DNA from: Patescibacteria group bacterium
GTDB lineage: Bacteria; Patescibacteriota; Patescibacteriia; UBA1558; UBA10009
Length of the DNA: 64,000 nucleotides
Direction: 5' to 3'
Assembly: GCA_041662565.1 (NCBI GenBank)
Contig: JBAZSE010000003.1
Span: forward strand, 108,636-172,635
The translations under genes and the position numbers were made by a program. Numbering within the stretch: the first letter of the stretch is position 1; each line of letters starts with the position of its first letter. This document shows, in pieces, positions 1,068 through 50,748 of the stretch. Under the pieces are notes generated by a model. It saw only the letters and a program-made list of their open reading frames with translations. It was not told the DNA's origin and ran no database searches.

Positions 1068-1468
1068 GATGCTTACTTAAGTTAATAAGCCGAATTCTGT
1101 ATCCAGACTTTTACATCTGGACAGCGATCATCTATCTAGAGCCGTAAATTGCTCTACGGCTTCGAGCTCTCAACCCGTCGAGCTTAGCTCGACCTATGCG
1201 AGATTGCACCGGATAGAGTTTGCCTCTTTTTCCTTGTCGCCAAGGAAACGAGCCAAGTCATTACTTAGCTATTTCACCCTTATTCTAAAACCTTGCGGTT
1301 TTAGAAAGGAATATTTTCTGTTGCGCTTGTCCTGATTCGGCGGTTACCCGCCTAATCGGTTGGCGTTACCAATTATCCTCCGAGTTAAACTCGGAAAAAC
1401 GGTGTTCGGACTTTCCTCCCCGATTTTGCAAAGCAAACACCGGGGCGATCACCTAAACTCAAATAAGT
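1068..1468 (-). ncRNA. rnpB: RNase P RNA, bacterial type A
   Basis: The minus strand contains GGAGGAAAGTCCGAACACC (P4 region consensus GGAAAGTCCGGGC), AAGGGTGAAATAGCTAAGTAATG (consensus GGGTGAAAnGGTGcGGTAAGAGC) and ACAGAATTCGGCTTAT (consensus ACAGAACCCGGCTTA). A P1 helix forms between 1456-1467 and 1072-1083. It lies in a ~590-nt ORF-free gap. A sigma70 promoter (-35 TTGACA 1498-1503, 17-nt spacer, -10 TATTAT 1475-1480) and a downstream hairpin with a T-tract (1036-1065) fit an independent transcript. Confidence 0.85.
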
Positions 1469-2681: not shown

Positions 2682-3695
2682 TTACTTAGTAAATAAAATA
2701 CTGCGCTTATATGACTCTAAGTTATCCAAAGCAATCCCGGTACCCTTGGCCACGCAGAGCAAAGCATCATCAGCCACGTAGGCGGGAACGCCTGTGGCTT
2801 GCGAAAGCAAGTTGGCCATATTTCTTAAAAGAGAAGAGCCACCTGTTAAAACCATGCCTTTATCCATTACATCGGCCGAAAGTTCGGGCGGGGTTTTAAA
2901 AAGCACGGATTTAACGGCTGCAATAATACCTTGAAGTTCGTTTTGCAGGGCCTCGGTTACATCGTCGGAATTAACTTCAATCGTCCTGGGCAAACCGGAA
3001 ATCATATCCCGGCCCCTGATATTCATTTTTAATTTTTCTTCATCATCCAAATACATCGCGGAACCGATCTGGATTTTTATCTGTTCGGCCGTGCTTTCGC
3101 CAATAGCTAAACCGTATTTTTTTCGGATAAATTCACCAATCGCCGCATCAAACTTGGTGCCGCCGATTCTTATGGAAGTATTAGCCACAATGCCGCCTAA
3201 AGAAATAACGGCAATTTCGGAAGTACCGCCACCCATATCCACAATCATATGCCCGGAAGCCGAACCAATAGGGATATTAGCGCCAATGGCTGCAGCAATC
3301 GGTTCTTTAATGATATAGGCCGCTTTGGCTCCAGCCGCTACCGTAGCATCAATAACCGCTCTTTTTTCGGTGGAAGTTATGCCAGCCGGAACAGCAATCA
3401 TTACTTCGGGCCTAAATAGTTTAACTCCCCCAATGGCCTTGTTAATAAAATATCTTAACATGCTTTCGGTGGTTTTATAATCGGCAATCACGCCATCCCT
3501 TAACGGCCTTAAAGCAATTATAGTATCTGGGGTTCGGCCCAGCATTTCTTTAGCTTCTTCACCCACGGCTAAAACTTTTTTATCAATAACCGAAATAGCC
3601 ACAACCGAGGGTTCATTAATAATAATGCCCCTTTTGGGTATATGGACCAGGGTATAAGTAGTACCTAAATCAATGCCTATTTTCTTGGTAAACAT
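2682..3695 (-). CDS. mreB: MreB/Mbl-like actin homologue (second paralog)
   Basis: N-terminal IGIDLGTTYTLV phosphate-1 motif and DMGGGTSEIAVIS phosphate-2 motif. 337 aa. Paralog of the gene at 7573-8616. Confidence 0.8.
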   Translation of the reverse strand: MFTKKIGIDLGTTYTLVHIPKRGIIINEPSVVAISVIDKKVLAVGEEAKEMLGRTPDTIIALRPLRDGVIADYKTTESMLRYFINKAIGGVKLFRPEVMIAVPAGITSTEKRAVIDATVAAGAKAAYIIKEPIAAAIGANIPIGSASGHMIVDMGGGTSEIAVISLGGIVANTSIRIGGTKFDAAIGEFIRKKYGLAIGESTAEQIKIQIGSAMYLDDEEKLKMNIRGRDMISGLPRTIEVNSDDVTEALQNELQGIIAAVKSVLFKTPPELSADVMDKGMVLTGGSSLLRNMANLLSQATGVPAYVADDALLCVAKGTGIALDNLESYKRSILFTK

Positions 3696-14146: not shown

Positions 14147-14569
14147 CTATTGTTTAGCTTGTTTATCCAGCTCTAAATTAACCATTTTGTCCGCTGCTTT
14201 GTTTTGCTCTCTGGGAATATGGGTATAAGTAATTTTTTTAAAAGTTTTGCTTAAATTCCAGGCCTTTAAAAATAAAACTTGTAGCCCGGCCTCTTTGACT
14301 TTGTATTCCAAACTTAATTGCTTAACCACTAATAAGCTATCCAAATAAAAATCTATTTCCAAAACTCCCAATTTTTGAGCTTCGGCAAAAGCCAATAAAA
14401 CTCCTTCATACTCGGCCTGATTATTGGTAGCTACGCCCAAATATTTGGAATGTTGGCTAATAACTTTTCCTGTCTCATCTTTGATAACCACTCCACAAGC
14501 GGCCGGCCCTGGATTGCCGCGAGCTCCGCCATCAGTATAGATTTTAAGTTTTGCGTATTTAATATTCAT
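14147..14569 (-). CDS. rnhA: Ribonuclease HI
   Basis: YTDGGARGNPGPAACGVVI and NNQAEYEGVLLAFAEA match the RNase H catalytic core. 140 aa. Confidence 0.85.
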   Translation of the reverse strand: MNIKYAKLKIYTDGGARGNPGPAACGVVIKDETGKVISQHSKYLGVATNNQAEYEGVLLAFAEAQKLGVLEIDFYLDSLLVVKQLSLEYKVKEAGLQVLFLKAWNLSKTFKKITYTHIPREQNKAADKMVNLELDKQAKQ

Positions 14570-18652: not shown

Positions 18653-18772
18653 TGTCATTCCGACCGAGCGCAGGCCAGCTGAGCTGGTCGAAGCGAGCAG
18701 AGGAATCCCTTATACCTTAGCTTAACCGATAAGGGATTTCTCGACTCGCCCTGCGGACTTGCTCGAAATGAC
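18653..18772. repeat. Palindromic extragenic element, copy A of a two-copy family
   Basis: gtcattccgaccgagcgc...gctcgaaatgac outer inverted arms with nested inverted repeats (ccagctgagctgg; gaggaatccc...gggatttctc). It shares arm sequence with the element at 34029-34148. It abuts the PfkB start codon. Confidence 0.6.
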
Positions 18773-18779
18773 AATAAAA

Positions 18780-20411
18780 TTATTCTTTTGAATACATTTC
18801 ATCTTTCTTTTCTTTCAAAAAAGCGATCCATTCTTCAATAACTTCCAAAAATATCTTTAATGGCGCTTCAATGATGAAATCCAAGATAAAAACAAAAACG
18901 TTGATTTTGGAAAACTTTTCCGAAAGCCAATGACCGGCTTTTAAAAAAGGCAAAGCAAAAAGGTTGACCAAAAAAACCAAAGGATTTTCTTTTTTATCAA
19001 TGACGGTTAAATCCTTAACTTTCATTCTCATTTTAATGCCAAAAAAGCTGACTAATGATAAAAACAACAAAAAGATCAGCTTACTAAAAATATTAAATTT
19101 CAATAAATTCAACAAATACAACAAAACGCTAAATGACAAATAAAATAAAGCCAAATAAAGAGCGTAAAATACAATTACAAAAAATTTACTTCGCTTGATT
19201 ACCCCGCCAATGGTAGTTTTAACCGATGTTGCCAAGGGCTGTTCCACCACTTCCTGAGCCAAAGCCACTACCCGATTGGTATTTTTTTTGGAAGGAATCC
19301 TGATAAATATTCCCAGCAAAAAAATCAAAAAAGGCGGGAACAGGGCGTTAATGGCCAAAGGCAAATACATAACTTTATGGGCAATGTAATAATCATAAGG
19401 AAATTCCAAGATCAAAGCCAAAACCATTTTAGTTAAAAACAGATAAATTACCACCCGCACAATGCTGCGCCTAAGCTTTGTCCTGGTGTTTTTATACATT
19501 TTATCGCAAGCGGAACGAATGGCCAGCTCCAGTTGAGCGGGATTTTTAAACAACCGATCCGCGTCATCAGGATTTTCGGAAATAATATCCCGCAGGACAT
19601 AAAAAACAAAAGCGGATTTTTTAAAGAAACGATAAAGCTTTTCGGCCAAATAATATTTTCTTCTTTTTTCAATTTCCTTCTTTAAATTGTTGATTTTTTT
19701 GGCTACCGGCAATAAATCAACGGGCTGAACGTTTTTCCAATCGGGATAAAAATAACGCAACAACTTATAATCCATCATTACTTCGTCGGATTTTACCAAG
19801 GCCCGATAAATTGCCAGATAAATATACAAATCCTTTTCCAAATCGCTTGAGCTAGGATCATTAATTGCCACTACCGGGCGCATCACCTTAAACATGTACT
19901 CGACCAATGCCTGATTGGCCAGCGGTGGCATTAAGCATTCTTCAATTTCGCAAGAACAAAGCCCGAGTAGCCATTTAAACAATTTAGCCCCGTTATCACT
20001 GCTTTTTTTGGAACCGCTTAAATTATACAGGGTTAAATATTTGGTAATGATCTTATCAACTTCTTCGGTTTTGCTAAAAGGAATAAGATTGTTTTCCAAA
20101 TAACCGGCACGGATCAGTTCTTTAACCAGGCCAAGCGATAAATCTTCAGTCGTTACCTTAATCATCAAGCGCCTTTGCAAAATCCTAAAGATCGCCGCCT
20201 TTCTCATTAAGTGATCCTCTTTATAATCAATGGCGTTGCGGATTTTCTCGTAAATAAAAGCAACCCTAGAGACAAAACTGTCTACTTGGATTCTGGAGAT
20301 TTCTTCTGTTGAGGAGTAAAAAACTTTCGGATCGGACCGTTTAATTTGCTCAATAAACCTTCTGGCTGATGAAGTTATGGGCATAATATTATGTTCTACA
20401 TTATACAACAA
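18780..20411 (-). CDS. Hypothetical polytopic membrane protein (soluble N-terminal half, multi-TM C-terminal half)
   Basis: 543-aa ORF with several hydrophobic helices in the C-terminal 250 aa. No recognised motif. Confidence 0.45.
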   Translation of the reverse strand: MLYNVEHNIMPITSSARRFIEQIKRSDPKVFYSSTEEISRIQVDSFVSRVAFIYEKIRNAIDYKEDHLMRKAAIFRILQRRLMIKVTTEDLSLGLVKELIRAGYLENNLIPFSKTEEVDKIITKYLTLYNLSGSKKSSDNGAKLFKWLLGLCSCEIEECLMPPLANQALVEYMFKVMRPVVAINDPSSSDLEKDLYIYLAIYRALVKSDEVMMDYKLLRYFYPDWKNVQPVDLLPVAKKINNLKKEIEKRRKYYLAEKLYRFFKKSAFVFYVLRDIISENPDDADRLFKNPAQLELAIRSACDKMYKNTRTKLRRSIVRVVIYLFLTKMVLALILEFPYDYYIAHKVMYLPLAINALFPPFLIFLLGIFIRIPSKKNTNRVVALAQEVVEQPLATSVKTTIGGVIKRSKFFVIVFYALYLALFYLSFSVLLYLLNLLKFNIFSKLIFLLFLSLVSFFGIKMRMKVKDLTVIDKKENPLVFLVNLFALPFLKAGHWLSEKFSKINVFVFILDFIIEAPLKIFLEVIEEWIAFLKEKKDEMYSKE

Positions 20412-30482: not shown

Positions 30483-30556
30483 TTTGGGAAGATTTTTGAT
30501 GGCTCGGGGACAGGGAGTCGAACCCCGATTGACAGGACCAGAACCTGCTGTCCTAC
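30483..30556 (-). tRNA. tRNA-Gln (anticodon CTG)
   Basis: Manual cloverleaf. Acceptor stem TCGGGGA/TCCCCGA with the U1:A72 pair and G73 discriminator typical of tRNA-Gln. D-arm GTC-TAATGGTAG-GAC. Anticodon stem GCAGG/CCTGT with loop TTCTGGT (U33, CTG, purine 37). T-arm CGGGG-TTCGACT-CCCTG. CCA is encoded. Upstream promoter: -35 TTGACG 30601-30606, 17-nt spacer, -10 TATTAT 30578-30583. Confidence 0.9.
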
Positions 30557-30677
30557 CATTAGACGATCCCCGAATACAATGTTTATTGATTAGTATAATA
30601 TTACAAAAAGACCTTATCGTCAAGATAATTTCTTGTTTTTTGAATTTAATGTTATAATATATCAATCATCAACATCT

Positions 30678-32395: not shown

Positions 32396-33982
32396 TCAAC
32401 CCACCACTTCTCCGCCAAAGGCCTCTAAAACCGCTTCTAAACGATTTACTGGATTATCTTTAACTTCCTCTGCTTTGGCTCCAAATTTGCCATCAACTAA
32501 GCCGGTTAGTAATAACGTTCGGCCAAAAACCCTTTCAAAAACATTGTGGACGATTTCCAGGTACTTACTTTCTTTTATTCGTTCATAATGGAAATTAAAT
32601 TGAAAACCCACGGTAATCCTATCTCCTTCAATAGAGATGGGTTGGCCCACCTGCAAAAAAGCGGCTAGAGCATGATTGTATTCCCGCAAGGCCTCAATTA
32701 CATCGGGCCATTTATTTTTTACTTCATCAATGTTAATTGGATTGCCGGTTTTATTAACCGGTTTTTTTGTTTGGATATTTTCATCCTTTAAGGCGGGAGG
32801 AACAACGGGTGGATCCTTTTTTGAAGGTGGTTCCGGGGTAACTTCCTGTTTTGTCGTTACAGGCACAAAATCGGTAATAGCTGCGCTTTTGATAATGGCT
32901 ACTTCCAAAGGCAGCTGAATAATAGCCGCTTGCTTGATGGATGATAATGCTTCCAAGAAAATTTCCAAAACTTTTACCAAATCAGCTGATGATAAACGAG
33001 CGGTTGCTTCCACTATTTTTTTTAACCACTCTTCGCCCGCTTCCCAAACCAAATCATCCCAATGGTTGGTAACTTTGGAAAGCAAAATTTTACGCAAGGT
33101 TTCTACGGTAATTTTAGCAAAATGTTCCAAATCCAAACCTTCTTCAAATAATTGATTAACCAAAATTAAGGCCTCTTTGGTTTTGGATGATAACACCAGG
33201 GTAATTAATTCCATTACCTTTTGCCAATCATTCTTGGGCATAACCAGCGAAGCGGCTTCTTGATCGATTTCTTTTTCCCCAAGTGATAATACTTGGCCCA
33301 AAAGTGAAACCGCATCGCGCAAATAGCCATCCGAGGCGCGGGCGATATTTTCTATTACTTCACCGGTAATATTAACTTCTTCCTGCCTGGCAATACCGGA
33401 AAGATGCAAAATAGCGGCTTCATGTGGCACTTTTTTAAAATCAAACCTCTGACAGCGGGAAATAATGGTTTCGGGAATTTTATGGATTTCGGTCGTGGCT
33501 AAAATAAAAATAGCGTGAGCGGGGGGCTCTTCTAATGTTTTTAAAAGAGCATTAAAGGCCTCGTTGGTTAACATATGGACTTCATCAATTATGAAGACCT
33601 TGTATTTTTCCTTAACCGGCGTGTATTTGGTTTGCTCGCGTAATTCTCTAATTTCGTTAATACCTCGATTGGAGGCAGCATCAATTTCCACCAAATCCAA
33701 AGAACGGCCGTCTTGAATTTCTAAACAGCTGGCGCACTGGCAGCAGGGCTCAATGCCGGCGGACAAAACCGTGTCTGCTCCTTGCAGATTTTGGCAATTT
33801 AACGATTTGGCTAAAATTCTGGCAATGGTTGTTTTGCCAATCCCGCGCGGGCCAGAAAAAAGATAGGCATGGGCGATTTTGCCGGTTAAAATTTCATTTT
33901 GCAAAGTAACCTTAATGTGATTTTGACCGACTACTTCGGCAAACTTTTGCGGACGGTATTTACGATATAATGTTGTTGACAT
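32396..33982 (-). CDS. dnaX: DNA polymerase III subunit gamma/tau
   Basis: YRKYRPQKFAEVVGQ and GPRGIGKTTIARILAKSLNC (Walker A). Zn-module CQNLQG...CCQCASC. DEVHML Walker B. Confidence 0.9.
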   Translation of the reverse strand: MSTTLYRKYRPQKFAEVVGQNHIKVTLQNEILTGKIAHAYLFSGPRGIGKTTIARILAKSLNCQNLQGADTVLSAGIEPCCQCASCLEIQDGRSLDLVEIDAASNRGINEIRELREQTKYTPVKEKYKVFIIDEVHMLTNEAFNALLKTLEEPPAHAIFILATTEIHKIPETIISRCQRFDFKKVPHEAAILHLSGIARQEEVNITGEVIENIARASDGYLRDAVSLLGQVLSLGEKEIDQEAASLVMPKNDWQKVMELITLVLSSKTKEALILVNQLFEEGLDLEHFAKITVETLRKILLSKVTNHWDDLVWEAGEEWLKKIVEATARLSSADLVKVLEIFLEALSSIKQAAIIQLPLEVAIIKSAAITDFVPVTTKQEVTPEPPSKKDPPVVPPALKDENIQTKKPVNKTGNPINIDEVKNKWPDVIEALREYNHALAAFLQVGQPISIEGDRITVGFQFNFHYERIKESKYLEIVHNVFERVFGRTLLLTGLVDGKFGAKAEEVKDNPVNRLEAVLEAFGGEVVG

Positions 33983-34028
33983 AGCTGATGAATTTTAGCA
34001 AAAATGGACAAAAATGGCAAATAAAAAA

Positions 34029-34148
34029 GCTTTGCTTACAGTCGTCATTGCGAGGAGCGCTAGCGACGAAGCAATCCCGATGTGCATACCAAGTACAGCG
34101 GGATTGCCACGCCCCTTCGGGGCTCGCAATGACCGATAATGGCAAAGC
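34029..34148. repeat. Palindromic extragenic element, copy B of the same family as 18653-18772
   Basis: gtcattgcgaggagcgc...gctcgcaatgac arms. Nested inverted repeats gcaatcccg...cgggattgc and gcccc-TTCG-ggggc. Outer gctttgc/gcaaagc arms. Sits between a hypothetical gene and the dnaX start. Confidence 0.6.
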
Positions 34149-34153
34149 TTTTT

Positions 34154-34684
34154 TTATTTTTTTATCACATTTTCCACCGCGGCCCATTGGCTATCCACGC
34201 CCTTAGGCGTTAAAATAACCGCCTCATCCCCTTCTTCTCCCTTAAAATACGTAATACTAGCTAAAATTACCTTAAAAACCTTATCATCGCATAACACGCG
34301 GTAATCACCGGATTCATCTTTAATCACTTTACCCACCAACCGCTCCCTATCAACCGGCCCGATCTGCTTGTAAGTAAAATTACCAGCTTCATCGATTATC
34401 AGTTTTAAAATATCGCCCTCAACCAACTTTGATTTGGAAATATAATTGGCCGGAACCGAATATTGCTTACCATCCGGACCAATCATCTTTTGCCCGTCAA
34501 ACACGCCTTCTATCACCCGTGATTCATCGGTTTTAACCATTTCGGCCACCGTCGCGGCTTTGCTTAAATAATCCAAGCCCTGGCCTAAATTTAAACTGCC
34601 CCCGTTTAATAAAATTTTACATTTTTGGATTTGAATTTCAATATTTTCCAAAATTTGTTTTAATTCTTCAATATTATTTTCCAT
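34154..34684 (-). CDS. Hypothetical protein (N-terminal coiled coil)
   Basis: 176-aa ORF. No motif recognised. Confidence 0.4.
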   Translation of the reverse strand: MENNIEELKQILENIEIQIQKCKILLNGGSLNLGQGLDYLSKAATVAEMVKTDESRVIEGVFDGQKMIGPDGKQYSVPANYISKSKLVEGDILKLIIDEAGNFTYKQIGPVDRERLVGKVIKDESGDYRVLCDDKVFKVILASITYFKGEEGDEAVILTPKGVDSQWAAVENVIKK

Positions 34685-40168: not shown

Positions 40169-43100
40169 TTATGCCGCCAGAGCCAAAGTTGACGTTTCTT
40201 TGTTTAAAGGTAAAACATCTATATTTTTGGCGAAATCCTGGTTATACTTAAAGTAACTGTCTAAATCTATTTCCTTGGTAACGTAACCTAGCCGCAACGA
40301 ACCATCTGTTTCCAATTTTGGTTGAACTTGATTGCCTTGGCTATCAAAAAACTTTACATTTTGTGCCAGCCATTTATCATAAAGCTTAGAGCCATCCGAC
40401 TGGCGATCAGTGATGTGATTTTTATAAGCAGCTTTAAATTCTTCCACAATTTGCCTGCCCTGATATTTATGGCCTTCTATTTCCAATGTTAACTGATGCA
40501 AGGGCACCGGCTCTTGACCGCCTTCTGGCATTAAAGAAGCGGTTGAGGCATGGAACATGATAAATTGCTTATCAGGTGTAACGGTTAAAATAGCACCGTG
40601 GCCTTCAGGGCCATAAGTGGCCGCTCCGCCGGATTCCATGTTAATTAAATATTCTCCCGGCTCTAGATTTTCTTTAACTGTTTGCCAGGAAGCGTTATTA
40701 TATTTTAATTGCTGTTCACGCAAGAAAACCGAAAACTTTAATTCTTCCGGTTTGCCGGCATGGACGCTTAAAAACCGATTATAATCATCTAAAACAGGAT
40801 ACTCTCCCTTATTTTCCTTAGCCGCTTGCCTAACCAAAGTCATGCAATCAAATCCATCCTTGCCAACACTGTACGGCTTACCCACTTCATCCATCAAACT
40901 ATTGGCAATCTTATAACTTTCCGGCAAAATTGCGCTAATTGGTCCACCGGCCATAATTGATTCAATCTTTGCCCTATTAAAAACCTCATGTCCGAATTTT
41001 TTTTCTAAACTGTTTAATTCTTTTAAAATTTCCGCTTTAACTGCTTCGGCCTGGGCCTTATAACCGCCTTTAATTAAAGATTGATAAACATCAATATCTT
41101 GCATTAAATCTTTACCTTGTTCACGAGCATCGGTAATACTACCAATTAATTTATCGCTCTTGCCAGCTAAAATGCTCCGATAGCCTTCCTTTAAAATTTC
41201 ATCTCCGGTAATATTTCCGGTTCGCTGATGCAATATTTCCACTCCGATAACGCCCGAGCCCCGATTGCCATATCTAAAAGTTACCTTGGAAGAACCTGGT
41301 AAATCTGGATTGTGGGAAGTAAAAACAAAATCCCGACCTTCATTGCTGATTTGTATGCCCGCAACCTCATTATTAACATCATTGGGCTTTAATTCCTGCA
41401 ACGGGGCTTGAGCCGCTAATTTTGGGTCAGCACCCGATGTAGGCGCAACCTCTGCCTCATTAACACTGGTTGATCCGGTAACAGGAGCATTGGCGGGATT
41501 GGCGATTATCTCTTGAATTGGCGGTTTTTCGCCACGCAAATAATAAGGGATGTTTTCAAGCTCTTGATTAGTCAAAGTTCCGATATGCACTTCTTGGCCA
41601 TTTTGATCAAGAATGGAAAAATTATTTTGTTTTAGATTAAGTTTAATTACAAAATTATTAAAGTTATTTTTATCTAAAATCATTCCTCTTTCCCAAGAAA
41701 CCCATTTTTTTACCTTAAAAACAAGTTCGCTAGATAAACCACGAGTAAAATAAACTTCTTTAACATCAAAGTTTTTACCATACCATGATTTTTCAGATTC
41801 AAAACTTTCACCAAACAACAACTCGGTTGCCTTGGCCATTTGATCATCAGACATACTTGATAAACCATCTCTGTACTGCGCTAAGCCGGCAATAACAACA
41901 TCTTTTTCAAAACTTAAATTTTTGGTGTAAGAAGTAGCTTCAAAAGCCCTGGCAAGGCCTTCATTAATTTTAGTGCCAAATTCATAATTCAAACTATTGG
42001 CAATGGGCATAAATTCCGCCACCTGCGCGCGCTCGGCTTGAATATGGTAATCTTTAAACAAGGCCTCGGTCATGCGGTTTAAATTTTGGCTGGCACGGCT
42101 AATGCCACCGGCTAATTCCGCCAATTCCGGCTGTTCAAATTCTTTTGGTAAAGCAATGGTATAATAGGGTTTATTGCCTTTAACCGCTACGCCCACCATA
42201 TCTGCCACGCCATCGTCATTACTATCCTGATAAACCAATTCATCGGCCTTATTAACAAGTTCGCCAACTTTGTTGGCCTGCGCTTGAACTGCCTCAACAA
42301 TCAATTTATTTTGAGCTTCAATACTGCTAGCGTCTACCACTTTTTCTACTGGCGGATTAACCGTGTTTTGGACTGGTAATTCCGGGCTTGCTTTAACATC
42401 CGATGGCACTTCTTTAATCAATGGAAAACCCTTGATATCCCCATGATCCAAACCATCGGGTTTTAAATAAAAAACCTGTTCCGGCTGACCATCGCCGATA
42501 TTATCAACGGTAATTTTTAAATTATTACCTTCTGCCAAAAATTCTATATTATTAACCGTGCCATCAATCACATACTGTTTGCCCCCGGCTTCAATTATAT
42601 TTCCATCTTTAAGAACATAACCCCTCTCAGTCATAAATTGACTGACTTTGGAACTTAAGCTGCTGGCGGTTAAAGGAGTTTCCGGGGAAATAATAATCGT
42701 CGATAGTTCCTCCGGCATATGCTTTAAATCATAACCGACATTGGCAATTTGAAAATCCGTTAACTCAAAACCGTCTTTTTGTATATCAGGAATAAATAAT
42801 TTATTCTGTATGGTATGGAAAAGTACATCGTGAGGTGCGCTGCCCTTAAAAGACAGGCCTACAAAAGTTATCTGATTCGTGCCATCAAAAAATTTAATAT
42901 CAGAAGCGGAAAAATCATTATTCGCAAACAAGTCTCGAGCAAACATAGTTGCCTCGTCTTTACTAAAAGTTTCATGTTGCTTCATGGCCAAAATGCCAAG
43001 CCACAACTCATGTTTATAAGACAAAGATAAGCGCTCGGTTAAAGCAAGAGCTTCTTTAACTGAAAGATATGAGGCATCATTAACTTTTAAAAAGGCCTCG

Positions 43101-46100
43101 GAAGTCAATCGCAATTGCTGTTGATCTTTAGCTGCTTCTAAAATTTCCTTTATCTCCCCCATTGCCCATCCTCGATCCATCATTTTAGTGGCAATATCAA
43201 ATTTTGCCAAAGAATAAACATTTTCCAATTTAAGCAAATCCAGATTTTCCTTACCCAATTTGCCAACAAAATTATCAACCAAGGCAAAATCCGGTTTGGT
43301 TTCAAATAATTGGGTGGTATTACTACCTTGCCCGTAAACTTTGTAAAACTTGGCCGCTTCCAAACGATCGCCCGTTAAATGAGTGGCTAATTGGTTTAAA
43401 TTATCGCTAGTTGTTCGCGCCTGAGAAACAAGCTCTATGGCTTTATCATGGCTTAATTTTTCATCAAATTCTATTGTTTGATAAGCCAAGTTTGATTCAT
43501 CTCTAATTTCTAAATGATCAGGTATATTATCGCTATCAGCATCAATTAAATGCAAAGTATCACCATTGGGCAATTTAACATCCAGCCCATCCCATGGCCC
43601 AATTAAGCCCGTTTCTGTTGACGGAGGGTTAATGTGTTCGGCGGGAGTAACGGGATCGACTTCTGGAGTCACAATTACCCCGCCGGCGGTTCTTATACTT
43701 AACGCTTCATCCAACTTGGCCTTGGATGCGCCGTGTAATTCCTCATGCGCATCCCAATATTCGCGCGCTGCCTTGGCTTCATTGTAATTTAACTGTTCAT
43801 GCAAACCGCCTTCGGCTTTATCCAAATTAAATTCATTTTTAACTTCTTCCGGAATTTCATTTAATTTAAATTCTTTGCTGATTTGATCATAACGACCGGT
43901 TAAGCTTTCACCCGCCTCAACTTTAACTTCAGATGTTTTATATACAATAATTTCGCCCGACTTGGTTTCAATTACTGTATCACCTTCGTGCACCAAATTG
44001 GCATCAAAATCCTTAATTTCGGAACCACCAATGGTAATCACGGTAACTTTGGCATCCGGCGCCATGGCCTTATCCAGGGCTTCGGAAACACTTCCTTTGG
44101 CTGAAACAGTTCCACCGGCCATATAATCCTGATCAGCTGGCAAATGATCTTTAAAAGCCGGGATTTTTTCCAAATCAGCCAGCATATGAAATTTATGAGT
44201 CAATGGAACAGTTGGAGTTATTGCATCTACGGAAGGTTCTATTGGATCTTTTTCAGTTACTACTGACGAATCAATAACTTCCGTAATTCTTGAACCGGCC
44301 GGTAAATCAGGAGGTAATTCTAAATCCGCTTGATCTATTGATGGTAACTCAAGATTAGTTGTATCAGTAGATGGTAATTCCAAATCAACTTGATTTGTAT
44401 CAGGTAAAGCAACAGCGTTATGCGCAACAGATGTATCTGCAGGCAAAGATAGGTCTTTTAAGGGTTCATCAGTTAATTCGCTAGCAGTAGAATCAACCAT
44501 CGCCGCATCACCTTCGGCTACGGTTTGATTAATACTAGCCACATCAGCAGAAATGTCCTGATGAAATAGCCAATCCCTAACAACCGCACCGGCGCTGGCA
44601 AAGGCCGCGCCATAAAAAGCGCCCCATAACATTTTCTTGGTAACATACCTATCCCTAGCCTTATAAATTTTACCCTCGCGATAACTTAAAAATTTTTCCA
44701 ATCTTTTGGTAATTTCATTTTCAGAAGCAAAGCCTCCGGCTAAAGTTTCTCCGAAATTCAAAACATCAATCAATTCCTGCTGATTTATTAACCTCTCTCC
44801 GGCTTCACCAAAATTAACCAAGCCCTTATCCAATTTATCCTTAGTATATTCTAAACGTGCTCGCAAAGAATCTAAAACTTTTTGTATTTTTTGCTGAATT
44901 TCCGGATCATCATCCGAGAAAAAATCATCAATCTCATTAAATTCAATAATCAATTTATCCAATTTGGCAGTTAAACCCTCGGCCTTAACAAAATTTTTAT
45001 CAGCCGATAAAAGCTTGGCACGCTCTGTTTCCAATTTATCTCTTTCTTGCTCTAATTCTTTTCTTACACCAAATGGCATTATGTACTTATACACTTTGCC
45101 ATCCCTAATAGTAAAATCCTTATTTGTTTCTAAACTTCTTGTTAGCTCGCCTTTTAGCTTGGCTAAATCAATTTTTTCATTATCTGACAATTTATCTGAT
45201 TGCTGTTTTTTATTTAAGAAGATTATTTTGCTTATAATTTCATTTTGCTGTTGCAAATTATCTTTAATATTGCCAACTTCCGTTACCTCTCCCTGCCTAT
45301 AAATTGATGAATCCAAAGATCTTATTTTGGTTAATAACTCACTGGCTTTTTTATCATTAGTACTTTGGGCCAAACCTCTTCTGGTTTCAACATCTTTTTC
45401 TTCTAAACCCGCTTGAGCCCTTTTTCTGCCCAACCAGCCACCCATAACCGCAGCAACCACAGGCGCGCCAATCACTCCCCAGGCACCTATTGCAGCTGTT
45501 CTGGCAATAAAACCGGCAGCAAAATAACCGCCTCTTTCTTGAACCGTGCTGATTAAAGCCGAGCGCCAAATTTTATCCGAACCAATCCGGCCAAGCTCCT
45601 TTTCCACTTCCGGATTGGTATTTAAAAATTGCTGAAGCCGTAATTTATTTTCAATTTGAACTAATTCCAAAAGAGCTTCACTGTCAGCATGAGCGCGTTT
45701 AAATGATTCATCATTAACCAAAAATCGCTTGTAAACTGCGTAATTATCTCTTGCTTCACTGTACTGTTTCTGTTGTTTTTTTGTGGCAGTTGGTAAAGAC
45801 CATTCATACGGCAGACGACTTAACTCGTTAATGGCTTTATTAAACCCAATTAAAACATTTTGCCCATCTTTATCAATACCTTCCCAAGCACTTAGATAGC
45901 CCACTTCCAAACGGCCTTTTTCATCTTGGGCAATTTCCAATTGCGCGGTTTGCTTGACCAAATCCGCTAAAAGTTTTTTATGTTGTTCAAAATCGGCAGA
46001 AAATACTTTTTTAGCGCCGGCTGTTTCGGTTTTAGCAACGTAATACTGTTTAAATAGATTTTTCCAAAGCTTACCCGCCAAATTACTTTGACCAAGTTCT

Positions 46101-47944
46101 TGCTTATATTCCGCCTTACCCTGATCTTGCGCCCTACCCAACATTATTTGCTTAAAATTTTCCAGCAAAAAGGCCTGCTGTTCTGGCGTTAACTCGGCAA
46201 AACCTTCCACAGAACTAAGTTGTTCGGGTGAAATATTAAATTTGGCAAAATCATTAACTATGAATTGGGCAATTTCTGGAGATAATTTTTTGGGCTCAGA
46301 CGAATCCTGCGCTTTAATCGGTTTTGAAGATTCTGGTAATTTATCCGGAACAGTGGTTTTTACAATTGACTCCATTTGAAGCCGTTTTTTTAATTCTTCA
46401 AGCAAAACTTTTGGTTTGGCCGTATCAATCAGAGCTTCTTTAATGCCATAAGCCCTAAATACATCTTCGTCAGAAAGATTAATACTTGCCGGAATTACAC
46501 CGGCTTCAAAATTCTTCAGCATTTCCTGTGCTCTTGTTTGAATAGCAGAATCAATAACTTTTTCCTTTGGTTTTATAGGTTTAGTGACGGGAATTTCCTC
46601 AACATCAATGACTTCAGAATCTTTAATTTTTGGTTCAGCAGAAACAACCGGCTCATTAGGGTCAATTTCTTTTACTTCGGCTAATTTTCTGGATGGCCTT
46701 TTGTAAAGCCCGCCCCAATCCAAGGACTCTTCCTTATCCTCATTACCTGTTTCAGCCAGTTCTGGTAATTTTTTGGATGATCTATCTAAACTTGCCCAAT
46801 CCAATGGTTTGCCTTCAATATCAACGGTTTCGGACACTTTTGGTAATGCTTCAATATCTTTAGGTGGTGATTCTGGCACAATAGCATCTTGACCTACATC
46901 AGCTAATGGAGTAATCTCTGGTGCTGTCTTTTTTAAGTTTACTTCGGTTTGTGCGCCAACGGGTTTAACTAATTCTTTTTCACGCCTTTTATATAATGAC
47001 CCCGGCGCGGGCCTGGATCCTTTCCTTAATAGCTTTGTATACATACTTTTTTCTAACCTGTACAAATCCCCTTCGCCAAGTGGCGTAAATATACCCGGCC
47101 TAACTTGCTCAAAACCAGTGTGCACCTCCTCCGTTCCTCCCAACCCGTCTGCAAATTGAACTAATACTGCAAGACCAGCCGAGCTAAACCGTTCGGCCTG
47201 AAAAGGCACTAATACTAAATTACCATTATCTCTTTCAAAGCCCACAAACGATCCGTCCGATCTCTTTACAAACTTATATTTACGATATGACATATTGGTT
47301 AATATGGCCTCCATATTAACCATTTCATAGAAATCAGAATCCAACCCTGCCTCTGCTAGCATTTTTTTTAAAGTTCCCCACTTTTTATCGCCAATTCTAG
47401 ACCATTCGTTAACAACATCAACAAGCGTTTTTTCCTTTTGTTCGTCAAAAGTCAATTCACTTTCTATTGAATTTTCTGGTGTTTTAGGAGCTTCCGGAAC
47501 CTTAACCGAATTAATAGGTTCTTTGATCGTTTGATCGGGATCCTTAAAACGATTTTTAAAATCTCTAAGCAAATCTTCCGCTTTACCATTTTGTATCTCT
47601 TCTTCACCAAATTCATAGGCCTTAAATACCGCAACTCCACGAGGAGTTAATTCTCTTTTTGAATTATTCAAACAAACTAATGGAGAATACGCCATTATTG
47701 ATTCCAAATCATTCTTAATAATACTTTTTGCGTCTGCTTGAATTTTAGGATCAATTTCTGGAGATTTTGGTATTTTGGGCGCTTCAACAACTGGCGTAAC
47801 CACTGGTTTTGACTCATTCCTATTCTTCCAAATGGCTTCTTCATCTTCAGTGAGCGGTAATTCATGTGCAATCTTTTTTATAATACTAAAAGGAGTAGGT
47901 TTTTTGAGCTCCCTATTTCCTTCTGATGATTTATCTATATTCAT
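40169..47944 (-). CDS. Giant (2591 aa) membrane protein with a C-terminal NlpC/P60 peptidoglycan-endopeptidase domain
   Basis: Uninterrupted 7.8-kb ORF with no signal peptide. Hydrophobic segments at ~aa 830 (YFAAGFIARTAAIGAWGVIGAPVVAAVMGGWLG) and ~aa 1090 (MLWGAFYGAAFASAGAVV). The C-terminus reads GKPYSVGKDGFDCMTLV...EPGEYLINMESGG...GHGAILTVTPDKQFIMFHASTAS. This is an NlpC/P60 Cys-His core (compare Spr: GIDCSGFV...GDLVLF...HVGIYIGNNQFVHASTS). Confidence 0.7.
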   Translation of the reverse strand: MNIDKSSEGNRELKKPTPFSIIKKIAHELPLTEDEEAIWKNRNESKPVVTPVVEAPKIPKSPEIDPKIQADAKSIIKNDLESIMAYSPLVCLNNSKRELTPRGVAVFKAYEFGEEEIQNGKAEDLLRDFKNRFKDPDQTIKEPINSVKVPEAPKTPENSIESELTFDEQKEKTLVDVVNEWSRIGDKKWGTLKKMLAEAGLDSDFYEMVNMEAILTNMSYRKYKFVKRSDGSFVGFERDNGNLVLVPFQAERFSSAGLAVLVQFADGLGGTEEVHTGFEQVRPGIFTPLGEGDLYRLEKSMYTKLLRKGSRPAPGSLYKRREKELVKPVGAQTEVNLKKTAPEITPLADVGQDAIVPESPPKDIEALPKVSETVDIEGKPLDWASLDRSSKKLPELAETGNEDKEESLDWGGLYKRPSRKLAEVKEIDPNEPVVSAEPKIKDSEVIDVEEIPVTKPIKPKEKVIDSAIQTRAQEMLKNFEAGVIPASINLSDEDVFRAYGIKEALIDTAKPKVLLEELKKRLQMESIVKTTVPDKLPESSKPIKAQDSSEPKKLSPEIAQFIVNDFAKFNISPEQLSSVEGFAELTPEQQAFLLENFKQIMLGRAQDQGKAEYKQELGQSNLAGKLWKNLFKQYYVAKTETAGAKKVFSADFEQHKKLLADLVKQTAQLEIAQDEKGRLEVGYLSAWEGIDKDGQNVLIGFNKAINELSRLPYEWSLPTATKKQQKQYSEARDNYAVYKRFLVNDESFKRAHADSEALLELVQIENKLRLQQFLNTNPEVEKELGRIGSDKIWRSALISTVQERGGYFAAGFIARTAAIGAWGVIGAPVVAAVMGGWLGRKRAQAGLEEKDVETRRGLAQSTNDKKASELLTKIRSLDSSIYRQGEVTEVGNIKDNLQQQNEIISKIIFLNKKQQSDKLSDNEKIDLAKLKGELTRSLETNKDFTIRDGKVYKYIMPFGVRKELEQERDKLETERAKLLSADKNFVKAEGLTAKLDKLIIEFNEIDDFFSDDDPEIQQKIQKVLDSLRARLEYTKDKLDKGLVNFGEAGERLINQQELIDVLNFGETLAGGFASENEITKRLEKFLSYREGKIYKARDRYVTKKMLWGAFYGAAFASAGAVVRDWLFHQDISADVASINQTVAEGDAAMVDSTASELTDEPLKDLSLPADTSVAHNAVALPDTNQVDLELPSTDTTNLELPSIDQADLELPPDLPAGSRITEVIDSSVVTEKDPIEPSVDAITPTVPLTHKFHMLADLEKIPAFKDHLPADQDYMAGGTVSAKGSVSEALDKAMAPDAKVTVITIGGSEIKDFDANLVHEGDTVIETKSGEIIVYKTSEVKVEAGESLTGRYDQISKEFKLNEIPEEVKNEFNLDKAEGGLHEQLNYNEAKAAREYWDAHEELHGASKAKLDEALSIRTAGGVIVTPEVDPVTPAEHINPPSTETGLIGPWDGLDVKLPNGDTLHLIDADSDNIPDHLEIRDESNLAYQTIEFDEKLSHDKAIELVSQARTTSDNLNQLATHLTGDRLEAAKFYKVYGQGSNTTQLFETKPDFALVDNFVGKLGKENLDLLKLENVYSLAKFDIATKMMDRGWAMGEIKEILEAAKDQQQLRLTSEAFLKVNDASYLSVKEALALTERLSLSYKHELWLGILAMKQHETFSKDEATMFARDLFANNDFSASDIKFFDGTNQITFVGLSFKGSAPHDVLFHTIQNKLFIPDIQKDGFELTDFQIANVGYDLKHMPEELSTIIISPETPLTASSLSSKVSQFMTERGYVLKDGNIIEAGGKQYVIDGTVNNIEFLAEGNNLKITVDNIGDGQPEQVFYLKPDGLDHGDIKGFPLIKEVPSDVKASPELPVQNTVNPPVEKVVDASSIEAQNKLIVEAVQAQANKVGELVNKADELVYQDSNDDGVADMVGVAVKGNKPYYTIALPKEFEQPELAELAGGISRASQNLNRMTEALFKDYHIQAERAQVAEFMPIANSLNYEFGTKINEGLARAFEATSYTKNLSFEKDVVIAGLAQYRDGLSSMSDDQMAKATELLFGESFESEKSWYGKNFDVKEVYFTRGLSSELVFKVKKWVSWERGMILDKNNFNNFVIKLNLKQNNFSILDQNGQEVHIGTLTNQELENIPYYLRGEKPPIQEIIANPANAPVTGSTSVNEAEVAPTSGADPKLAAQAPLQELKPNDVNNEVAGIQISNEGRDFVFTSHNPDLPGSSKVTFRYGNRGSGVIGVEILHQRTGNITGDEILKEGYRSILAGKSDKLIGSITDAREQGKDLMQDIDVYQSLIKGGYKAQAEAVKAEILKELNSLEKKFGHEVFNRAKIESIMAGGPISAILPESYKIANSLMDEVGKPYSVGKDGFDCMTLVRQAAKENKGEYPVLDDYNRFLSVHAGKPEELKFSVFLREQQLKYNNASWQTVKENLEPGEYLINMESGGAATYGPEGHGAILTVTPDKQFIMFHASTASLMPEGGQEPVPLHQLTLEIEGHKYQGRQIVEEFKAAYKNHITDRQSDGSKLYDKWLAQNVKFFDSQGNQVQPKLETDGSLRLGYVTKEIDLDSYFKYNQDFAKNIDVLPLNKETSTLALAA

Positions 47945-47994: not shown

Positions 47995-50748
47995 CTAAAA
48001 TTTAAATTTAATTCCTAATTCACTAATAGATTTTTCAATCTCTTCAAACATTTGATGCGCTAATTCTACTTTTTGACTAAAAACATTACCAGATTGTTCC
48101 AAATCATCTTGGCCTTTTTTAAATTCTTTACCTAATTCTAAGGCCCGTGCCTGCAAGTAATCCACCAATTCATTCAAATCCTTAAATTTATTAAATAGAT
48201 CCGCGGTTTTCTGTTCTTTAGATAAGCCCTTGGTTTGTTCTAACAGCCAAGAATATTGATCATCCAAAAAATTAAACGGTTTGATTATCGTTTCGTTATA
48301 CCATTTTGTAGGATTAAATTTTTCTTGCTCCAGCCCTTTAGACGTGCTAACAAGAGATTCTTGGTCAGGATTTTCGGTTTGTTGCTTTTTAGCCGCCTCA
48401 ACTAAAAGATCTTTTAAATCGTCTTGTGGGATGGTAGGTTCGCCCTTTCCTTTCGTATTACCAAATTTTTCTTGCAAAGCATCAACATCAACTGAAGTTA
48501 ATGGTGTTTTAGGACCTGTTGATGGTTTAATAATTCTTGGTTCACTGGCTTGTTTCGGATCTTCAGCTTCAACAGACTTGCCATCGGGCTGATGTCTTTG
48601 AATTTCCGGATCTGTTACTGGCACTTGAGCTACTTCTTCCGCTTGGTTATCCAGCATCCTTTCTAGCTCTAAAATTTTATTTTGGGCTGGATGAAACACC
48701 TCCTCTATCATTGAGTCAGTCAAATCATTAAAGATTTTTGAATCAAAAACGCCTTGTTTAAGTTGATCTTGATAATGATCTTCAACATGATTTTTAATTA
48801 CTTGTAAACGTTCTGCTAATCCATCATAAAAACTTTGAATTTCACCTATCTTTTCCGGCGGTAAAGATGAAATTAAAGTTTTAAATTTGACCAATGAATC
48901 AGAGACTATTGGAACTATATTCGTTTTAAAATCTTGAACCATTCCTTCTATATCCTCTTGAACTTCTACTGTTGTTGGTAAAACCTGTTCCACCCCAGGA
49001 ATAGCACTTACTTTTGCATCAGCCACTAATGTTTTCTTTTCAGCTATTGGTTCGCTAACCGTTAAAATTTCGGTCGGTTCTGATAGCGGCTTAACCAACT
49101 CACCCCTTAATTGTTCAGCATGGTCTTTGGTTATTGCATCGCTTTGCAATTCCCTATCGATAGAATCACTAATAAGAGCCGCTGAAACTCTTTTTAATAA
49201 TTTTCGTTTTTCTCCTTCTGATTGTTGACTGATTAATTCATCGTGTAGTAATTCATCCGCCTGCTCTTTAGATATTTTACCTTTTTCAAGGAGTTCATTG
49301 ATTTTATCAGTTACCACCGAAGGTTCAGGTTGGACCAAACTAGCATCATTTGGTTTAATGACTTTTTCTTCAATAACAACCCCCAGCTTTGATGGATCAG
49401 TCACCAATGTTTCATCAATTTGTGAAGCAAGTTGGTCTAATCTGCGGTCAGCATCAGCTTGATCCACCACTTGAGCTGGCTTTAGCGCCGCTTCAGCGGG
49501 TTGAATGTTTGCTTTTGGTCCTATTGCTTGATCTATTTCTTCAAATATTGTCCGAGCCCTTGCGTCATCTTCACTAATATTATTTGGTTCGCTAACCGTT
49601 AAAACTTGGTCTTTATTTTTGTTTTGAGGAATTAATACCGGCTCTAAAACAAGTTCATTAGGTGGTTCTGCTATTGATTCTGGTTGTAAAATTTGACTAT
49701 CAATCTGCACAACCGGCTCAACTGTTTTAAACTTTATAGGCGCTTCAGTTTTTTCCTGTAAATAATTCCGCAAATCCTTTAAGAATGTCTCAAAACCGCT
49801 AAGATATTCTCGATCCAACATCTTTTGATCATACTCCTTCTTGAAAATAGCTGCCGAAAGGTTGTTCTTCATTAAATTAAATTTTTCAATCAGCAATTTT
49901 TCGGTATTATTGTTATCATCATTAATAAGTTGATTAATAAATTCTTGAATTTGGATAATAACTGATTTTAGTTCTGGGCTCTGTTTTGCATCTAAAACTT
50001 CAGGTAAACTTTGTTGCAAATCATCTAGTAAATCCTCAAATCTCGAAATTCTAAATTCAGCTAATGTGTCCGGATCCTCGGTCCAAACTTTTTCAAGTTT
50101 ATTATAACTTTCTTGCAAATACTGAAATTCATGAATCTGTTTTTTCTTGGCAGGATTATCATCATGGACCTGTGGAATCAGTAATTGAATTTGATCAATA
50201 ACTGATTTAAGATGGACGCTTGGTTTTTCAGTTTGAACTTCAGCGCCTTTTTCAACCGGCTTGGATTCTTTAATCTGCTTTAGTATTGCTTTACTCTCTT
50301 CATTATAATATTCTTCAAACTTTTGCATTAAATTACGCAAACAGCCGATAAACGATTGAAAGGTTTCGGGGTTTGAAGGATTTTCTACCAACTCTTTGGC
50401 ACGAATGTATATAGCACCATAATCAATATTAAATTCTGACGAAGGTAAAGCATGACCTATACAATCCTTACCGATTTCAAAATTTTTAAATGCCTCGTTA
50501 ACATCATCGTCATTCTGATTTTTTAAAATCGCGTCAATAATCTCATTAACCTCCTGAGTCATTTCATCATGCCAAAACATTCTTTCTTCAAATTGATAAT
50601 CTTTCCAATCATTTCTTATTTCAAATGATTCTTTTCTATTGAATTCTAATAAGTCGGCAAAATCATTAGGAACAGCCACTTGTTCATTTGTATTGGTTGA
50701 ATTAACCTGATCATTTGGTGGGATTTGATCAATTATTGGTTCGGCCAT
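47995..50748 (-). CDS. Large (917 aa) acidic repeat-containing hypothetical protein, probably co-transcribed with the giant gene
   Basis: No TM or signal peptide. Internal repeats (LKSVIDQIQLLIPQVHDD and LKSVIIQIQEFINQLINDD). 50-nt gap to the giant ORF on the same strand. Confidence 0.5.
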   Translation of the reverse strand: MAEPIIDQIPPNDQVNSTNTNEQVAVPNDFADLLEFNRKESFEIRNDWKDYQFEERMFWHDEMTQEVNEIIDAILKNQNDDDVNEAFKNFEIGKDCIGHALPSSEFNIDYGAIYIRAKELVENPSNPETFQSFIGCLRNLMQKFEEYYNEESKAILKQIKESKPVEKGAEVQTEKPSVHLKSVIDQIQLLIPQVHDDNPAKKKQIHEFQYLQESYNKLEKVWTEDPDTLAEFRISRFEDLLDDLQQSLPEVLDAKQSPELKSVIIQIQEFINQLINDDNNNTEKLLIEKFNLMKNNLSAAIFKKEYDQKMLDREYLSGFETFLKDLRNYLQEKTEAPIKFKTVEPVVQIDSQILQPESIAEPPNELVLEPVLIPQNKNKDQVLTVSEPNNISEDDARARTIFEEIDQAIGPKANIQPAEAALKPAQVVDQADADRRLDQLASQIDETLVTDPSKLGVVIEEKVIKPNDASLVQPEPSVVTDKINELLEKGKISKEQADELLHDELISQQSEGEKRKLLKRVSAALISDSIDRELQSDAITKDHAEQLRGELVKPLSEPTEILTVSEPIAEKKTLVADAKVSAIPGVEQVLPTTVEVQEDIEGMVQDFKTNIVPIVSDSLVKFKTLISSLPPEKIGEIQSFYDGLAERLQVIKNHVEDHYQDQLKQGVFDSKIFNDLTDSMIEEVFHPAQNKILELERMLDNQAEEVAQVPVTDPEIQRHQPDGKSVEAEDPKQASEPRIIKPSTGPKTPLTSVDVDALQEKFGNTKGKGEPTIPQDDLKDLLVEAAKKQQTENPDQESLVSTSKGLEQEKFNPTKWYNETIIKPFNFLDDQYSWLLEQTKGLSKEQKTADLFNKFKDLNELVDYLQARALELGKEFKKGQDDLEQSGNVFSQKVELAHQMFEEIEKSISELGIKFKF

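Follow-up and report, generated by a model that had tools for sequence, protein, structure and literature searches.

The stretch analysed here, referred to as the window, comprised 64,000 nucleotides (64 kb) of contig JBAZSE010000003.1 from a Patescibacteria group bacterium, in which the genes were very closely spaced and nearly all on the minus strand. The two largest same-strand spacers were occupied by related imperfect palindromes, designated elements A and B, each of which lay between same-strand genes. Element A started 6 nt past the stop codon (18780-18782) of a 543-aa membrane-like open reading frame (ORF) without a Pfam match and ended 8 nt ahead of the ATG (18644) of a PfkB-family kinase, while element B started 19 nt past the stop codon (34154-34156) of a conserved 176-aa ORF and ended 60 nt ahead of the dnaX ATG (33982). 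Each element consisted of two inverted copies of a hairpin unit (5' tetranucleotide tag, stem, variable core and 3' tail) that recurs in many other genomes, and both are probably selfish insertions of the repetitive extragenic palindromic (REP) type, in which case these spacers would represent inserted repeat DNA rather than regulatory leaders. The features of both sites are given below; R1 denotes a covariance model of the unit.

18653-18773, unstranded: element A, a head-to-head doublet (tags outside) forming a 121-nt imperfect palindrome (window sequence, RNA and DNA folds)
18653-18709, plus strand: A-left half-unit, TGTC tag, stem ATTCC/GGAAT, 37-nt insert with a CCAGCTGAGCTGG hairpin, tail CCC (R1 23.2 bits, E 0.005)
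18710-18732, unstranded: spacer between the A half-units, TTATACCTTAGCTTAACCGATAA, about 23 nt, its ends prolonging the central stem (sequence, fold)
18733-18773, minus strand: A-right half-unit, TGTC tag, stem ATTTC/GAAAT, tail CCC (R1 18.1 bits, E 0.064)
33992-34020, minus strand: promoter-like site of dnaX, TTGCCA-17-TAAAAT (TG-extended), outside the repeat, between B and the ATG at 33982 (hexamers also in related contigs L244, L248 and L250)
34023-34035, unstranded: left arm, AAAAAAGCTTTGC, of an outer AT-rich inverted repeat around B, giving a U-run on the gene strand
34043-34134, unstranded: element B, a head-to-head heterodimer forming a 92-nt imperfect palindrome (window sequence, RNA fold)
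34043-34078, plus strand: B-left half-unit, CGTC tag, stem ATTGC/GCAAT, core GAGCGCTAGCGAC (which includes GCGNNAGC), tail CCC (R1 50.4 bits, E 6e-9)
34079-34099, unstranded: B spacer, GATGTGCATACCAAGTACAGC, 21 nt (sequence; homologous spacer in L244)
34100-34134, minus strand: B-right half-unit, GGTC tag, stem ATTGC/GCAAT, core CCCCGAAGGGGC (which includes CCGAAGG), tail CCC (R1 38.3 bits, E 2.6e-6)
34142-34155, unstranded: right arm, GCAAAGCTTTTTTT, of the outer inverted repeat, overlapping the stop codon (34154-34156) of the 176-aa ORF (sequence, fold)

Sequence, folding and family membership of elements A and B

Two related imperfect palindromes had been described in a sequence-only reading of this stretch, and their existence was borne out by sequence, by folds compared with those of shuffled sequences and by matches to R1. 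The limits of A agreed with that reading apart from one nucleotide (18653-18772), whereas B had been placed at 34029-34148, a span that is too long because it takes in part of the separate outer AT-rich inverted repeat. The palindrome of A read tGTCATTCCGA...TCGAAATGACa and the ends of B were cGTCATTGCGAG...CTCGCAATGACc. By our own count from the sequence, the left arms of A and B were identical at 15 of 18 positions with one gap and the right arms at 11 of 12, figures close to the earlier ones of about 16 of 18 and 13 of 14, and the internal core that the two elements had been said to share (cgaagc...aatccc / gggatt) was present in both. A location immediately 5' of a minus-strand gene start, also noted for both copies, holds for A and only loosely for B, given the 60 nt and the promoter-like site between B and dnaX.

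RNA folding, which the same reading had proposed as a check, gave -56 to -59 kcal/mol for A (z about -6.4) and -49 kcal/mol for B (z -5.7 to -6.6), and on both strands the two elements were much more stably folded than shuffled sequences (z -5.6 to -6.6). The corresponding DNA fold of A was -30 kcal/mol (z -5.2). In A, the stems ATTCC/GGAAT and ATTTC/GAAAT were complementary within each half and mismatched between halves, a pattern suggesting that what is conserved is the hairpin of the half-unit; both stems of B were ATTGC/GCAAT, of which the A-left stem is a compensatory variant. The half-units of A also carried inserts of 37 and 15 nt. All four tails in the window were CCC and pair with each other in the doublet, the tags were CGTC and GGTC in B and TGTC twice in A, and of the two cores of B, one contained CCGAAGG and the other GCGCTAGC.

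Four mechanical ORFs (75, 72, 44 and 41 aa; window 33960-34206) crossed B and yielded the pseudo-peptides SLRGALATKQS, VIARSASDEAI, GLAMTD and ARNDR. Spurious ORFs of this kind, here 33960-34187, 33988-34206 and 34014-34139, are to be watched for in annotation.

Model R1 was built from 90 aligned foreign units (alignment A2), with no window sequence included, and was run over the window with filters off. Its matches were the four half-units listed above, the next-best match in the window scoring 14.1 bits (E 0.47). Neither a pattern search nor R1 revealed copies beyond A and B in the 64 kb, and a 10-mer search of the window alone gave 6 matches as compared with 4.9 expected, which is not significant. 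B can be classed as a canonical family member and A as a diverged member with long inserts. A weak R1 match at 50508-50532 on the plus strand (CGTCATTCTGA...AAAATCGC), inside a 917-aa ORF (47995-50748), could be a decayed intragenic unit or could be due to chance.

The repeat unit and its occurrence in other genomes

The unit measured about 30 nt and took the form 5'-YGTC / ATTSC / GA / G-(variable mini-hairpin)-C / GAA / GSAAT / CYN-3', in which the variable mini-hairpin was often GCGNAGC or CCGNAGG. The canonical unit was CGTCATTGCGAGCGAAGCGAAGCAATCCA, or as a string YGTC-ATTGC-GAG-N-GAAGCAAT-CCA. The ATT...AAT ends of the stem were invariant among the foreign units (90 of 90) and the four half-units of the window. 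For the 90 foreign units, the proposed structure paired 85% of cells as compared with 22-55% for slid partners, and the covariation score was 0.141 as opposed to 0.054 in shuffles. Since complementarity in helix 1 was partly imposed by the selection of units, a separate unbiased count was made of changed stem dinucleotides. Thus, among 32 distinct units in which the 5' stem dinucleotide was not GC, a complementary 3' change was noted in 25 and GC was kept in 3. The hairpin of the unit is kept by compensatory changes.

Pairing also extended to the variable cores, which paired end to end in 44.5% of distinct cases as opposed to 9.6% in shuffles and were closed by loops of 2-3 nt, mostly the 3-nt loop GNA (GAA, GCA or GTA). 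The motifs GCGNAGC, CCGNAGG or GCGNNAGC, known as mini-hairpin DNA motifs (PMC13037366), occurred in 88 of 264 distinct cores as compared with 10.7 in shuffles. A K-turn or ribozyme reading of the GA/GAA loop was rejected on inspection, which revealed no 3-nt bulge geometry, no Rfam match and loops of 2-3 nt.

Searches with the exact pattern GTCATTGCGAG-N(5-30)-GAAGCAATC, which has 20 fixed bases, were performed against viral contigs and against one-genome-per-species contigs (596 Gb). Matches were noted in at least 120 stretches of the former collection and at least 120 of the latter. By our own estimate, chance would account for about 28 matches in the whole 596-Gb genome collection, and the true number is clearly far larger. 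Hosts among the matches listed included Alpha-, Gamma- and Deltaproteobacteria (many of them Bradyrhizobium), Chloroflexi, Bacteroidota (Pedobacter, Chryseobacterium), Cyanobacteria (Nostoc, Microcoleus), Melainabacteria, Zixibacteria, Planctomycetota, Latescibacterota, Firmicutes (Sporomusa), Helicobacter rodentium and three Patescibacteria metagenome-assembled genomes. The unit was also present on megaplasmids of cultured Novosphingobium, Methylosinus and Methylobacterium, and on pNL2 of N. aromaticivorans it lay between two same-strand genes.

In 240 foreign loci among the matches listed, the base preceding GTCATT was C in 256 cases, T in 207, A in 19 and G in 15, and the 3' tail was CCA in 176 foreign copies, CTC in 145 and CCC in 49. 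In many of the matched stretches the pattern occurred twice, in inverted orientation and about 23 nt apart. Head-to-head, tail-to-tail and head-to-tail doublets numbered 64, 5 and 2 in genomes and 42, 6 and 10 in viral contigs, and the head-to-head spacer had a median of 23-24 nt in foreign copies, close to the 23 nt of A and 21 nt of B. Single units made up half of all copies. According to crude ORF calls, foreign copies lay between unidirectional genes in 55 cases, convergent genes in 21 and divergent genes in 13, and single units had the same orientation as neighbouring genes in 32 cases and the opposite orientation in 27 in viral contigs (20 and 8, respectively, in genomes).

No gene family was enriched within 300-600 nt of copies at the 240 loci, a test that was not exhaustive for whole genomes, and the apparent protein clusters near foreign copies were mostly translations of the repeat itself. 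Likewise, no RAYT (REP-associated tyrosine transposase) was seen in the window or beside sampled copies, and the small ORFs of the window, which encode GreA, RNase H-like, Hsp20, GrpE and proteins without assignment, included no transposase-family match. A 140-aa ORF (14147-14569, minus strand) matched RVT_3 / RNase H with an E-value of 8e-23 and probably encodes an ordinary RNase HI-like protein. Genes of the GIY-YIG type were considered as companions of the repeat and rejected, there being no enriched neighbour family and no unit beside the sole such gene. That gene, an 81-aa GIY-YIG gene at 4686-5240 of L248, was flanked by two partial tRNA-like copies (tcggggatcgtctaacg..., ...aatccctgtccccgagcca repeated) just downstream of dnaX and has the appearance of an insertion of homing-endonuclease type at a tRNA gene, unrelated to the repeat.

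Rfam searches at gathering score gave no match over A or B in a scan of the whole window, with miRNA-type noise only at E-values up to 10, and no family was found in 18 foreign loci; matches elsewhere in these searches were to RNase P, tRNA and a 6S RNA. A literature search by sequence strings and pseudo-peptides returned unrelated primers only.

In a group of phage contigs (L254-L333), single units, sometimes two or a truncated and a full one, were noted about 170 nt upstream of position 1501. These units lay in frame between a short upstream copy of 'ribosome-binding site + MSKVK(Q/E)AL...' and the true start of a small gene, unit-free relatives kept the duplicated mini-ORF, and the 5' flank of the units was pyrimidine-rich (CCCYT).

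Other features of the window were a bacterial RNase P RNA of class A (1070-1465, minus strand, 184 bits), a tRNA-Gln(CTG) gene (30500-30573, minus strand) and a 2591-aa ORF (40169-47944, minus strand).

The two sites in related genomes and alternative explanations

A scan of metagenomes for close relatives of the kinase gave a single locus, L243, in which the kinase was 66% identical and the same gene pair was present, the upstream ORF having the same ...KDEMYSKE* end. The junction in L243 was TAAttttATG (4 nt) as compared with 135 nt in the window. The gene order at site B (ATPase, methyltransferase, 176-aa ORF, dnaX) was kept in relatives, three of which (L248; L250-252) had an empty site, i.e., a spacer of 86-98 nt that contained a small ordinary hairpin and T-run and no unit. 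In contrast with these, a Komeilibacteria genome (L244, 3056-3146) carried a B doublet at the orthologous site, with the same kind of outer stem and with compensatory stem changes. On the gene strand, this element had 82 of 92 identities to the antisense of the window and only 61 of 93 to the sense, indicating the opposite orientation. The flip is either an in-place inversion (e.g., by recombination or template switching between inverted arms) or the outcome of two entries into the same terminator loop, and since the flanks are themselves palindromic, the breakpoints of L244 relative to window B cannot be placed. In another relative (L246, 2501-3998) the 176-aa gene was tandemly duplicated and a degenerate A-type doublet lay in the 433-nt spacer between the copies; a near relative of A-right was found there (3146-3174, 22 bits). 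Together these comparisons suggest that A entered the 4-nt spacer of a conserved gene pair and that the 176-aa gene was followed by a terminator-like hairpin whose loop received B.

From these observations we consider it probable that A and B are non-coding, non-autonomous selfish insertions of the REP type, arranged as REPIN-like doublets. Among other explanations, the one that survives best, improbable as it is, is that the repeats are DNA sites selected by the host, such as single-stranded DNA (ssDNA) initiation or primosome signals or sites of nucleoid or topoisomerase binding, as proposed for E. coli REP/BIME. Consistent with it are the strong conservation of sequence across phyla, the enrichment of cores in GCGNAGC/CCGNAGG mini-hairpins and the occurrence of such motifs at the G4 and RSF1010 ssiA priming sites and the N4 virion RNA polymerase promoter (PMC13037366). 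A universal host factor would nevertheless leave the absence of the motif from most genomes unexplained, the density of copies was patchy (2 in 64 kb), and copies were present or absent at the same loci in close relatives.

The sequence-only reading had suggested an RNA-level element regulating the downstream gene, i.e., the kinase for A and dnaX for B. Both elements do occupy transcribed spacers in an array of genes on one strand, their RNA hairpins are very stable, and A ends so close to the kinase ATG (8 nt) that its hairpin could affect ribosome access. For B, however, the promoter-like site of dnaX, which ends 9 nt ahead of the ATG, lies between the element and the gene, and dnaX thus probably has a promoter of its own and a nearly leaderless transcript, leaving B outside its 5' untranslated region. 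Together with the outer arms (34023-34035 and 34142-34155), B formed one hairpin of -65.4 kcal/mol followed by the U-run UUUUUUAUUU on the gene strand. A simple terminator scanner reported none at B, the loop being above the limit of the scanner, and relatives without B had a small canonical hairpin and T-run in the corresponding position. The predicted fold of B and its outer stem has the shape of an extended terminator for the 176-aa gene. Apart from being embedded in the terminator-like hairpin of the upstream gene, B occurred in both orientations at one site in two genomes. Neither element was present at orthologous loci in the relatives with empty sites, the gene pair at site A being tightly coupled and only 4 nt apart in L243. 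The unit adjoined unrelated genes across phyla and in phage contigs, no Rfam family matched, and the loops of 2-3 nt are typical of DNA palindromes. In view of these results, dedicated regulation of the downstream genes appears slightly less probable even than a host-selected site, and A and B are more readily seen as tolerated passengers that form hairpins at 3' ends.

The same reading had compared the elements to REPs or to miniature inverted-repeat transposable elements (MITEs). The former likeness was upheld by the doublets, the many copies in many genomes and the empty sites in relatives, while the latter was not. Thus, although the terminal inverted repeats and small size of A and B are similar to those of MITEs derived from an insertion sequence (IS) with a DDE transposase, with GTCATTGCGAG as the terminal inverted repeat, target-site duplications of k = 2-8 were no more frequent than in the control among 103 distinct doublets. 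In these doublets conservation stopped one base outside GTCATT, at which position Y...R was complementary in 80 of 103, with background beyond. Single units, moreover, were common (half of copies) and are themselves conserved hairpins, and no linked transposase was seen at sampled loci or among small ORFs of the window, so that an origin as MITEs is essentially excluded. Least probable of all, and likewise essentially excluded, is a chance likeness of two GC-rich palindromic spacers or ordinary terminators, an outcome that the sequence-only reading had named, alongside a total of only two copies, as refuting its view and that the two copies and unremarkable 10-mer count of the window would allow, but which is at odds with the E-values of the foreign-built R1 (6e-9 and 2.6e-6 for B, 0.005 for A-left) and with recurrence of the unit, with structured variation, in hundreds of foreign loci.

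Comparison with known systems

A superfamily of REPs with a CGTC tag was described by Di Nocera, De Gregorio and Rocco (2013, BMC Genomics 14:522, PMC3733652). According to the text of that paper, these REPs have an unpaired 5' CGTC (TGTC or CCTC in many cases), stems with A-T pairs at the start and a short 3' tail near CCA, occur mostly as head-to-head dimers with spacers of 20-100 bp, some of them nested in larger palindromes, lie between same-direction or convergent ORFs near the upstream 3' end, and were found in five phyla with no associated transposase. Judged by the same text, the unit described here shares the YGTC tag and the A-T stem start, as well as the head-to-head bias, the range of spacers, the same-strand or convergent position close to an upstream stop codon, the occasional nesting in larger palindromes, the lack of a dedicated transposase beside copies and the occurrence in several phyla. 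Its 3' tail compares less plainly, being CCA in many foreign copies and CCC, paired in the doublet, in the window. Hence the family, which had been called novel in the sequence-only reading, has most of the defining features reported for CGTC-tagged REPs and a widespread half-unit; it appears to belong to that superfamily or to be its closest relative and is filed here as a CGTC-type REP. What is new, relative to the text of the 2013 survey, is the host group (candidate phyla radiation (CPR)/Patescibacteria), the several phyla and phage contigs beyond those surveyed and the differing stem architecture, the unit itself being widespread. Thus, in addition to viral contigs, the unit was noted in Patescibacteria, Chloroflexi, Cyanobacteria, Planctomycetota and Firmicutes, which extends its range beyond the five phyla named in PMC3733652.

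Several points weigh against this interpretation. With respect to the superfamily, the CGTC-1 to -4 REPs of PMC3733652 are described as having continuous stems of 8-9 bp and loops of 4-5 nt, whereas in the unit 5 bp of stem lead through an internal loop (GA/GAA) and a G-C pair to a second, variable stem. Peptides listed there for CGTC-1 to -4 (VIPAKAGI/DSRFRGND, VIAGLDPAIH/DGRVKPGHD, VIPWLDHGI and others) also differ from VIARS..TKQS and DCF..LAMT of the unit. As the peptides of the unit were not in the supplementary peptide lists of PMC3733652, assignment to CGTC-1 to -4 was rejected, and membership in these groups, compared by text and peptide lists rather than by the consensus figure, is unproven. 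Pruning in that survey dropped repeats with more than one stem mismatch, by which, to judge from its text, a bipartite stem would tend to be excluded. With respect to the window, copy A is divergent and A-right by itself is marginal (E 0.064), and the two copies hold for a span of 64 kb, or 8%, of the 809-kb source contig. The patterns by which family members were gathered keep the conserved ends fixed, and the sample is thereby biased to canonical copies. The genomes with empty sites had proteins of 66-77% identity, and exact junctions as well as the choice between insertion and deletion would follow from parsimony. Single half-units were not unusually stable by DNA or RNA nearest-neighbour parameters (z 0 to -2), and support for the half-unit hairpin thus comes from covariation; nearest-neighbour models give no credit to sheared G.A pairs. 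Finally, no mobilising enzyme was identified, so that a step involving ssDNA and an HUH enzyme rests on analogy; in the text of PMC3733652, none is reported for CGTC REPs either.

The hairpin unit, the 5' tetranucleotide, the tags-outside doublets, the sharp ends without duplication, the presence or absence of copies at a site and the flip in L244 nonetheless favour mobilisation in trans of the REP-type insertions proposed here. Such features are typical of REP/REPIN elements and of IS200/IS605-type ends, which Y1 HUH enzymes process in the form of folded single strands. By analogy with RAYT and GTAG-REPs, the units might be recognised as folded ssDNA, through the hairpin and 5' tetranucleotide, by an HUH/Y1-like enzyme that acts in trans and copies or moves them without leaving a duplication. 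Provided that A and B are REP-type selfish insertions, such an ssDNA mechanism is a serious candidate, at somewhat less than even chance. After insertion, the elements would be part of the transcript of the upstream gene and fold there into RNA hairpins of very high stability, B extending an intrinsic terminator and A forming an intercistronic hairpin, which in a read-through transcript would amount to -56 to -59 kcal/mol just before the kinase start. The hairpin of A may shield the 3' end of the upstream gene and weaken coupling with the kinase.

A broader proposal, which we regard as tentative and rather doubtful, is that the unit represents a fifth, bipartite-stem branch of CGTC-type REPs that is pan-bacterial, carried by phages and spread horizontally, and that is copied as a folded ssDNA mini-hairpin, without target duplication, by an enzyme encoded elsewhere than beside the copies. 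If so, the CPR copies would be examples, in a genome of some 0.8 Mb, of flip-flop inversion in situ and of recent insertion, with an operon spacer and a terminator loop as the sites. To our knowledge, little has been written on REP-type repeats in the streamlined genomes of CPR bacteria. CGTC-type REPs are a large REP class without a known mobilising enzyme, and a 20-base signature that is near-identical in distant phyla and phage contigs, together with the lack of target duplication and the mini-hairpin cores, provides a handle for finding one, for example by phylogenetic profiling with a model such as R1.

Other known systems resemble the unit to varying extents. The dRS3/NIME repeats of Neisseria and the RPE-4/RPE-6 palindromes of Rickettsia are placed in CGTC-1 and CGTC-4 in the text of PMC3733652. 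They have the same tag and the same ATT...AAT stem ends as the unit, and ATTCC/GGAAT of A resembles their ATTCCC...GGGAAT, but their stems are continuous and otherwise of different sequence. RPEs show that such units can lie in frame within genes, and dRS3 is an integration target for IS110-like recombinases. In the REPIN/RAYT system (GTAG-REPs of Pseudomonas and Enterobacteria; Bertels and Rainey 2011), two inverted units likewise combine into a larger hairpin, regarded as the entity that replicates, singletons resemble remnants, copies are intergenic and there is no target duplication. In contrast with the YGTC of the unit, the tag of these REPs is GTAG or GTGG, and no cognate RAYT was seen for the unit in the window or at sampled loci; REPIN families are lineage-specific and vertically inherited, whereas near-identical copies of the unit occur in different phyla and in phage contigs. 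Mini-hairpin DNA, d(GCGNAGC)/d(GCGNNAGC) (PMC13037366), is identical to the commonest cores of the unit, including CCGAAGG and GCGCTAGC in B, although the literature on it concerns hairpin biophysics and a few priming or promoter sites rather than a dispersed repeat family. Finally, the REP/BIME elements of E. coli, which stabilise mRNA at 3' ends and act as terminators, are unrelated to the unit in sequence but resemble it in lying just past stop codons and in forming stable hairpins in the transcript.

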